This document shows, in pieces, positions 42,110 through 42,193 of a DNA stretch of 64,000 bases. The notes under the pieces are model-generated. The model was not told where the DNA came from. It ran no database searches and worked only from the letters and a program-made list of their open reading frames with translations. How positions within the stretch are numbered: the stretch's first letter is position 1; every line of letters begins with the position of its first letter. A program made the position numbers and the translations under genes. Source of the DNA: Escherichia coli (GTDB lineage: Bacteria > Pseudomonadota > Gammaproteobacteria > Enterobacterales > Enterobacteriaceae); NCBI RefSeq assembly GCF_044324785.1, contig NZ_CP172127.1; one strand, 5' to 3'.

Positions 42110-42124
42110 TTTATTTTAAATTTT

Positions 42125-42136
42125 CCCGTCAAAGAG
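42125..42136 (+). promoter_or_regulatory. ChiX sRNA pairing (decoy/trap) site in the chbB-chbC intercistronic spacer: CCCGTCAAAGAG
   Basis: 12-nt perfect complement to the ChiX seed CUCUUUGACGGG as I recall it; the chbBC spacer is the known ChiX trap. Confidence 0.7.
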
Positions 42137-42193
42137 TTATTTCATAAATCAATACCGCAATATTTAAATTGCGGTTTTTAAGGGTATTTTTCT

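Follow-up and report, generated by a model that had tools for sequence, protein, structure and literature searches.

Does the short spacer between chbB and chbC of Escherichia coli work as a single device, in which pairing of the small RNA ChiX is coupled to premature termination or processing of the chb transcript, or does it hold two elements with separate roles? The question arises because a ChiX pairing site and a terminator-like hairpin both lie within the 84 nt at 42110-42193 of the 64,000-nt stretch of DNA analysed here (the window), and it concerns the ChiX-chbBC pair, the prototype of small-RNA sponges carried on bacterial mRNAs, on which synthetic sponges are now built. Our analysis leaves the accepted view of this trap as it was, and a conserved hairpin together with a possible helix sequestering the chbC Shine-Dalgarno (SD) sequence are modest additions to the known decoy.

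The chbB-chbC spacer and its ChiX pairing site

In the window the operon reads chbBCARFG (41789-47021), with chbC, chbA, chbR, chbF and chbG lying 3′ of the spacer, whose features are collected in Table 1. Among 5426 complete E. coli genomes, 5414 are at least 99% identical over the 612 bases surrounding the spacer and are annotated chbB/chbC there. An IS1 element breaks chbC about 155 nt into the ORF in several complete genomes of the species, among them NT1F31 (L082, about 662-1426), leaving chbB and the spacer decoy whole. Searches against Rfam gave no family match in the chbB-chbC spacer of E. coli and four relatives. Upstream of the chb region, a match to ES036 (CssrF) exceeded the gathering score at 40001-40043 of the window on the minus strand and is adjoined by a weak naRNA4-like match on the plus strand (40047-40083).

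Table 1. Features of the chbB-chbC spacer and flanking genes (window coordinates).
Feature	Position	Strand	Basis or remark
chbB (PTS chitobiose IIB) CDS	41789..42109	+	ORF list and RefSeq annotation of identical E. coli sequence; TAA ends at 42109
U/A-rich leader (UUUAUUUUAAAUUUU)	42110..42124	+	Sequence; immediately 5′ of ChiX site
Core ChiX pairing site CCCGUCAAAGAG	42125..42136	+	Complementary to ChiX nt 58-47
Second ChiX pairing block AUUUCAU	42139..42145	+	With ChiX nt 44-38; RNAcofold, and duplexfold across orthologues
Conserved mRNA hairpin	42154..42175	+	Stem 42154-42161 / 42168-42175, loop AUUUAA; energy, pair probabilities, covariation
U-rich linker, 4 nt	42176..42179	+	Hairpin to SD; with T42175 makes the T5 run
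chbC SD AAGGG	42180..42184	+	9 nt before ATG at 42194; nearly invariant in alignments A1 and A2
Helix 2, 5′ strand (predicted)	42181..42191	+	Sequesters SD; MFE and centroid folds
chbC (PTS chitobiose IIC) CDS	42194..43552	+	ORF list, RefSeq annotation
Helix 2, 3′ strand (predicted)	42220..42231	+	chbC codons 9-13 (AAAAGGUAC.UCCU), anti-SD-like CUCCU

The original prediction had described the 12-mer CCCGTCAAAGAG as perfectly complementary to the ChiX seed, and this proved correct: present at a single place in the window, it is the exact reverse complement of nt 47-58 of ChiX as encoded in E. coli K-12 (NC_000913.3, 507204-507287; L001:305-388). Two of its nucleotides, C42125 and C42126, stand opposite ChiX G58 and G57, with which the terminator stem of ChiX begins. 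The 12-mer by itself is only moderately rare, since 18 of 100 shuffles contained it when up to one mismatch was allowed. The full duplex extends further, with 12 bp followed by a 2-nt mismatch and then another 7 bp (42139-42145), and its energy with the single-stranded region of ChiX is -28.1 kcal/mol, compared to -8.5 ± 2.6 kcal/mol (minimum -18.0) in 500 shuffled spacers. Co-folding of ChiX with 42080-42230 in RNAcofold, a check on which the original prediction had staked the pairing, likewise yielded a stable duplex (ddG -21.7 kcal/mol) with intermolecular pairs at 42127-42136 and 42139-42145. Without ChiX, the core site was predicted in silico to be largely accessible (mean P(unpaired) 0.73 over 42125-42136). 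The site is retained in about 72 of 80 orthologous loci, and the leader preceding it, a candidate Hfq contact, is T-rich in all spacers with a ChiX site and missing from the Kosakonia spacers that have none.

The chbBC trap or sponge for ChiX (MicM, SroB) is said to go back to work by Overgaard in 2009, Figueroa-Bossi in 2009 and Plumbridge in 2014, and the pairing site at 42125-42136 is this published decoy, already known as such. Later accounts describe the chbBC intergenic sequence as sponging ChiX and speeding its decay (PMC7815308; PMC4098024; bioRxiv 2021.05.11.443692; PMC5145812), and the pairing as extending to the ChiX terminator stem and opening ChiX to 3′ decay (PMC4104026; PMC4474525). 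The same literature reports that ChiX levels fall and chiP is de-repressed in vivo once chb is induced, in both E. coli and Salmonella (PMC7815308; PMC4098024; bioRxiv 2021.05.11.443692; PMC4474525), and reviews report the trap in Salmonella besides E. coli. Our site agrees with the trap, which is this same locus, in its position, in its complementarity to the ChiX seed and in pairing as far as the ChiX terminator stem, with no difference in the pairing site itself. The adjoining hairpin, in contrast, is undiscussed in the literature that we found save for a 2026 preprint, whose supplement marks 'a likely important stem loop' at this position; Overgaard (2009), Figueroa-Bossi (2009) and Plumbridge (2014) may describe or test it.

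Conservation of the hairpin and its relation to the ChiX site

The hairpin that had been noticed just before the chbC ribosome-binding site is indeed present, 18 nt downstream of the ChiX site, as an inner CCGCAA/TATTTAAA/TTGCGG at 42155-42174. It lengthens to 8 bp at 42154-42175, ACCGCAAT/ATTTAA/ATTGCGGT (in RNA, ACCGCAAU/AUUUAA/AUUGCGGU), where the first T of the T-run (T42175) can pair with A42154. The T-run ascribed to it held up as a T5 at 42175-42179, whereas the last two positions of the predicted element, 42180-42181, turned out to be the AA of the chbC SD. Its energy is about -10 to -10.5 kcal/mol and, when folded within 151 nt, its pairs have probabilities of 0.87-0.997. As a G+C-rich terminator stem-loop, with four G-C pairs among the 8 bp, it falls at the weak end of the range. 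Its single-sequence z-score is only about -2.1, and the weight therefore rests on comparative evidence. An additional outer helix, CCC(42125-27):GGG(42182-84), which appeared in the MFE fold of the isolated spacer, was rejected because it is lost when the chbC sequence is added (p = 0.001).

We gathered 80 chbC loci, with one genome per species, from Escherichia, Citrobacter, Salmonella, Kosakonia, Enterobacter, Klebsiella, Raoultella, Lelliottia, Leclercia, Buttiauxella, Cedecea, Proteus and other genera, and extracted their spacers, 66 of which are distinct and make up the covariation alignment A1 over the 8 stem pairs. Standard pairs occupy 96.4% of the stem cells in these 66 spacers, five of the eight pairs have changed on both sides, and compensatory cells number 55 compared to 13.7 in shuffles, a count that none of 500 shuffles matched; when the partner columns were slid, pairing fell to 24-56%. 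Variant stems include GCCGUAAC/GUUACGGC in Enterobacter, GCCGCAAG/CUUGCGGC in Buttiauxella, GCCGCCG/CGGCGGC and CCGUCAUC/GAUGACGG, and the loop varies freely in length and sequence. Moreover, the stem contains 25 G·U against 4 A·C combinations across the 66 spacers, so that the structure under selection is that of the sense (chb mRNA) strand and not a DNA palindrome or an antisense element. Retention extends to 79 of the 80 loci, and likewise to the chb operons on megaplasmids of Rahnella (Yersiniaceae), with only a weak 4-bp remnant (-4 kcal/mol) in Proteus. The sole locus without the hairpin, that of Klebsiella sp. BIGb0407 (L080, 1370-1500), encodes a ChbC 84% identical and has a 131-nt spacer that also has no ChiX site. 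Judged by these comparative measures, the hairpin is a real, evolutionarily conserved RNA structure, a stable stem-loop of the sense transcript between two cistrons, as expected of an intercistronic mRNA stabiliser or processing barrier.

The original prediction had also suggested that ChiX pairing and premature termination or processing are structurally linked at this spot, and here the data point the other way. The hairpin is unchanged in the ChiX-mRNA co-fold, while the ChiX site is already open by itself. Six Kosakonia-type spacers (L021-L023, L025, L026 and L050), included among the 79 loci with the hairpin, have neither the ChiX site nor the U-rich leader, and their duplex energies with ChiX (-7 to -11 kcal/mol) equal the shuffle background; all the same they retain the hairpin, linker and SD. 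Because Kosakonia keeps the hairpin without a ChiX site, decoy and hairpin are separate evolutionary modules. A stem-to-SD spacing held constant at 4 nt in 57 of 66 spacers links the hairpin with the region where chbC translation starts, and on the evidence of the alignments it is with the chbC ribosome-binding site that the hairpin goes together in evolution.

Termination and translation initiation downstream of the hairpin

Intrinsic terminators typically have 6 or more U in the 8-9 nt directly 3′ of the stem. At the chb hairpin the stem ends 4 nt before the SD, and any U-run is therefore just 4-5 nt long, the E. coli stem being followed by UUUU(U) and then AAGGG. The linker up to the SD, A[A/G]GG, measures 4 nt in 57 of 66 orthologues and reads UUUU in Escherichia, AUUU in Salmonella and most Citrobacter and Enterobacter, CUUA or CUUU in the Klebsiella oxytoca group and AAUA in Buttiauxella; in Salmonella and Citrobacter the post-stem sequence is GGUAUUUAAGGG. 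Within 8 nt 3′ of the stem, 50 of the 66 spacers have three U or fewer and 16 have four or five, so that a stem 96% paired across these spacers is not accompanied by a conserved U-tract. A consensus terminator scan made no plus-strand call at the hairpin, a call missed only since the scan ran the stem through the first T. We also applied a crude score of the d'Aubenton-Carafa type, not calibrated with current energies, which was used only for relative comparison because it is negative even for the functional terminator of ChiX: the Escherichia hairpin with U5 scored -14 and the terminator of ChiX -12.6. As the two values are close, partial termination in Escherichia is kept as a minority possibility.

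The hairpin shares with Rho-independent terminators a G+C-containing stem-loop followed by U residues, but differs in having only 4-5 U before AAGGG, in the absence of the U-run from most orthologues, and in sitting inside an operon that needs downstream transcription. There is also read-through in a synthetic construct: in the 2026 preprint a sponge is built on all 84 nt of the spacer, hairpin and U5 left as they are, and a reporter placed 3′ of the spacer and 5′ of the construct's terminator is expressed. The proposal that the hairpin serves as a premature-termination element is not borne out; the hairpin is probably not primarily an intrinsic terminator, and termination as its conserved function is not supported, with weak partial termination, processing or 3′-end protection possible in Escherichia, which has UUUUU.

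Folding of the region from -90 to +60 around the chbC start predicted a further helix (helix 2), which pairs the SD and U-run with chbC codons 9-13 and holds the start codon inside the enclosed part. It is predicted in Escherichia, Citrobacter, Salmonella, Proteus and part of the Enterobacter group, with P(unpaired) of the SD at 0.03-0.25 in the first four of these genera, and is not predicted in most loci of Klebsiella, Raoultella, Buttiauxella and Cedecea. In 52 sequences, 86.7% of the helix 2 cells are paired, mainly through conservation, with double changes in only 8 cells; slid controls for both helices together gave 38-59%. The helix gains further support from unusually strong synonymous constraint over chbC codons 8-15 (Leu8 is CTT in 97%, Val11 GTA in 94% and Pro14 CCT in 95%), compared to entropies of 1.6-1.8 bits at fourfold-degenerate codons farther on. 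The 3′ strand of helix 2 is altered in Kosakonia, where the anti-SD codons read GAUACUGGUG / GAUACUUCU (L021, L022, L023, L026 and L050, about 1420-1500; L025, 1281-1500). Sequestration of the chbC SD by helix 2 is, on these predicted folds, plausible. Short anti-SD-like motifs 5′ of the hairpin (CCUU in Buttiauxella, CCCU in Kosakonia) were also considered and were set aside, as they fall in no common alignment columns.

Candidate roles of the hairpin and variants in other genera

We think it rather probable that the spacer consists of two independent modules, the ChiX decoy and a chbC-linked unit of hairpin, linker and SD helix, and that the hairpin is not primarily a terminator. The upstream module (42110-42145) is the known decoy, an open U/A-rich stretch with 12 + 7 nt complementary to the ChiX seed; by the published mechanism, mRNA from the induced chb operon would titrate ChiX, leading to its degradation and to de-repression of chiP. 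The downstream module (42154 to about 42231) would belong to chbC, with an 8-9-bp hairpin placed 4 nt upstream of the SD and then the predicted helix. As to how the hairpin acts biochemically, we infer a structural insulator and stability element, one that would let the decoy platform fold independently of the chbC initiation region and would, where the two cistrons meet, be a barrier to RNase E or exonucleases; the U5 of Escherichia would then be a local version of a short, variable U-rich linker. A hairpin held by purifying selection independently of the decoy, and tied to the chbC ribosome-binding region, bears on how the operon stays expressed while ChiX is being consumed, and it tells engineers which portions of the 84-nt scaffold are needed.

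Other readings of the hairpin have to be weighed against this one. Its inverted repeat, a near-perfect palindrome, could be a DNA-level site for a dimeric protein or a terminator of the opposite strand, and the consensus scan does call a terminator on the minus strand only, with the tail ATTGATTTAT. Both forms were nonetheless ruled out by the count of G·U against A·C, since G·U combinations are mismatches in the minus-strand RNA and break the dyad symmetry of the DNA; moreover, the loop varies freely and no convergent gene ends at the hairpin, which makes the idea extremely improbable. A better case can be made for the hairpin and U5 as an attenuating intrinsic terminator or an exonuclease stop protecting a 3′ end, by which a discrete chbB-spacer RNA, its 3′ end made up of seed, spacer, hairpin and short U tail like that of an Hfq-binding small RNA, would do the sponging of ChiX in the way that SroC sponges GcvB. 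The order of U-rich leader, seed, hairpin and U5 resembles a small RNA, the crude score of Escherichia is near that of the ChiX terminator, in 16 of 66 species the stem is followed by 4-5 U, and SroC, like the chb decoy, comes from a spacer inside a transporter operon (gltI-gltJ), a precedent for release of a sponge from such a place. However, SroC is a discrete, abundant RNA cut by RNase E processing from prematurely terminated gltIJKL mRNA, while at chbBC the intact mRNA sequesters ChiX, a contrast drawn by Miyakoshi et al. (PMC4474525), and the U-tract is short and unconserved where the stem is conserved. Salmonella and Citrobacter carry GGUAUUUAAGGG after the stem, yet the trap is reported in Salmonella too; the hairpin persists in Kosakonia without a ChiX site; and a reporter beyond the same hairpin and U5 is expressed. 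The supplements covered from the E. coli Term-seq study list no chb 3′ ends and no entries for chbA, chbB or chbC, which is uninformative if, as we assume, the operon was uninduced in those media. Taken together, this leaves release of a separate sponge RNA an unlikely account of the hairpin.

A different role at the level of translation would make the hairpin and U-rich linker an Hfq docking site beside the chbC SD, such that ChiX, bound about 50 nt upstream, might deliver Hfq and lower chbC translation, or might instead occupy the sole single-stranded standby platform. In favour of such roles, chbC has been described as a target of ChiX and is enriched with Hfq, the pairing site stops 49 nt short of the ATG and is too distant for direct occlusion of the ribosome-binding site, the SD is predicted to be largely paired in many species (P(unpaired) 0.03-0.25), and a short U-rich linker sits between two helices. 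The scheme is nevertheless entirely inferential, covariation in helix 2 is weak, and the hairpin, being kept where the ChiX site is missing, cannot have this as its sole role; we hold it to be doubtful, with a small chance of being right. Given the distance of the pairing site from the ATG and the status of chbC as a ChiX target, repression at a distance would be an attractive extension of the two-module reading. Repression of this kind has reportedly been proposed for Spot 42 and sdhC. In its widest form, which seems to us improbable but worth stating, the spacer and the first 13 chbC codons would make up a conserved three-part fold of ChiX/Hfq platform, insulating hairpin and SD-sequestering helix, in which chbC translation would need the platform and ChiX would repress chbC from a distance by competing for the standby site or for Hfq while itself being destroyed; in Escherichia, the hairpin with U5 might also end or protect some transcripts to give a small-RNA-like sponge from the chbB 3′ region. 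Known systems offer partial parallels. The glmU-glmS region, target of GlmZ, likewise combines intercistronic stem-loops, a masked downstream SD and a small-RNA pairing site, but GlmZ opens the masking helix and activates glmS, whereas ChiX pairs upstream of both chb helices and is predicted to open neither. Standby control of tisB by IstR-1, in which the small RNA likewise works from a position 5′ of a structured initiation region, may serve as a mechanistic analogy only, as may the intra-operon Rho polarity that ChiX causes at chiPQ (Bossi et al., 2012) when considered for chbC.

Several genera depart from the E. coli arrangement of the two modules. In Kosakonia oryziphila (L025, about 1345-1485), the hairpin and the chbC SD are separated by about 140 inserted nt bounded by inverted ends, GGGCCTGGCCC...GGGCCAGGCTC; the insertion gave no Rfam match and may be a small mobile element. 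Spacers of Klebsiella and Raoultella are 147-169 nt long (L033, L034, L043-L045, L053-L056 and L058; about 1332-1440) and carry, 5′ of the ChiX site, a further inverted repeat of variable sequence, such as TTTTGACG...CGTCAAAA in K. pneumoniae. The Rahnella megaplasmid operons have two tandem GTCAAAGAG motifs (AAGTCAAAGAG and CCAGTCAAAGAG; L083, 625-635 and 640-651, and similarly L084) upstream of the conserved hairpin GCCGCCAGATGGCGGC (L083, 668-683), possibly forming a double ChiX decoy. The sites of Proteus and Rahnella read CCAGTCAAAGAG (L049, L072, L074, L079, L081, L083 and L084), whose A would not pair with G56 of the E. coli ChiX and might have changed together with the ChiX of these genera, and those of Buttiauxella and Cedecea read TCCGTCAAAGAA/G.
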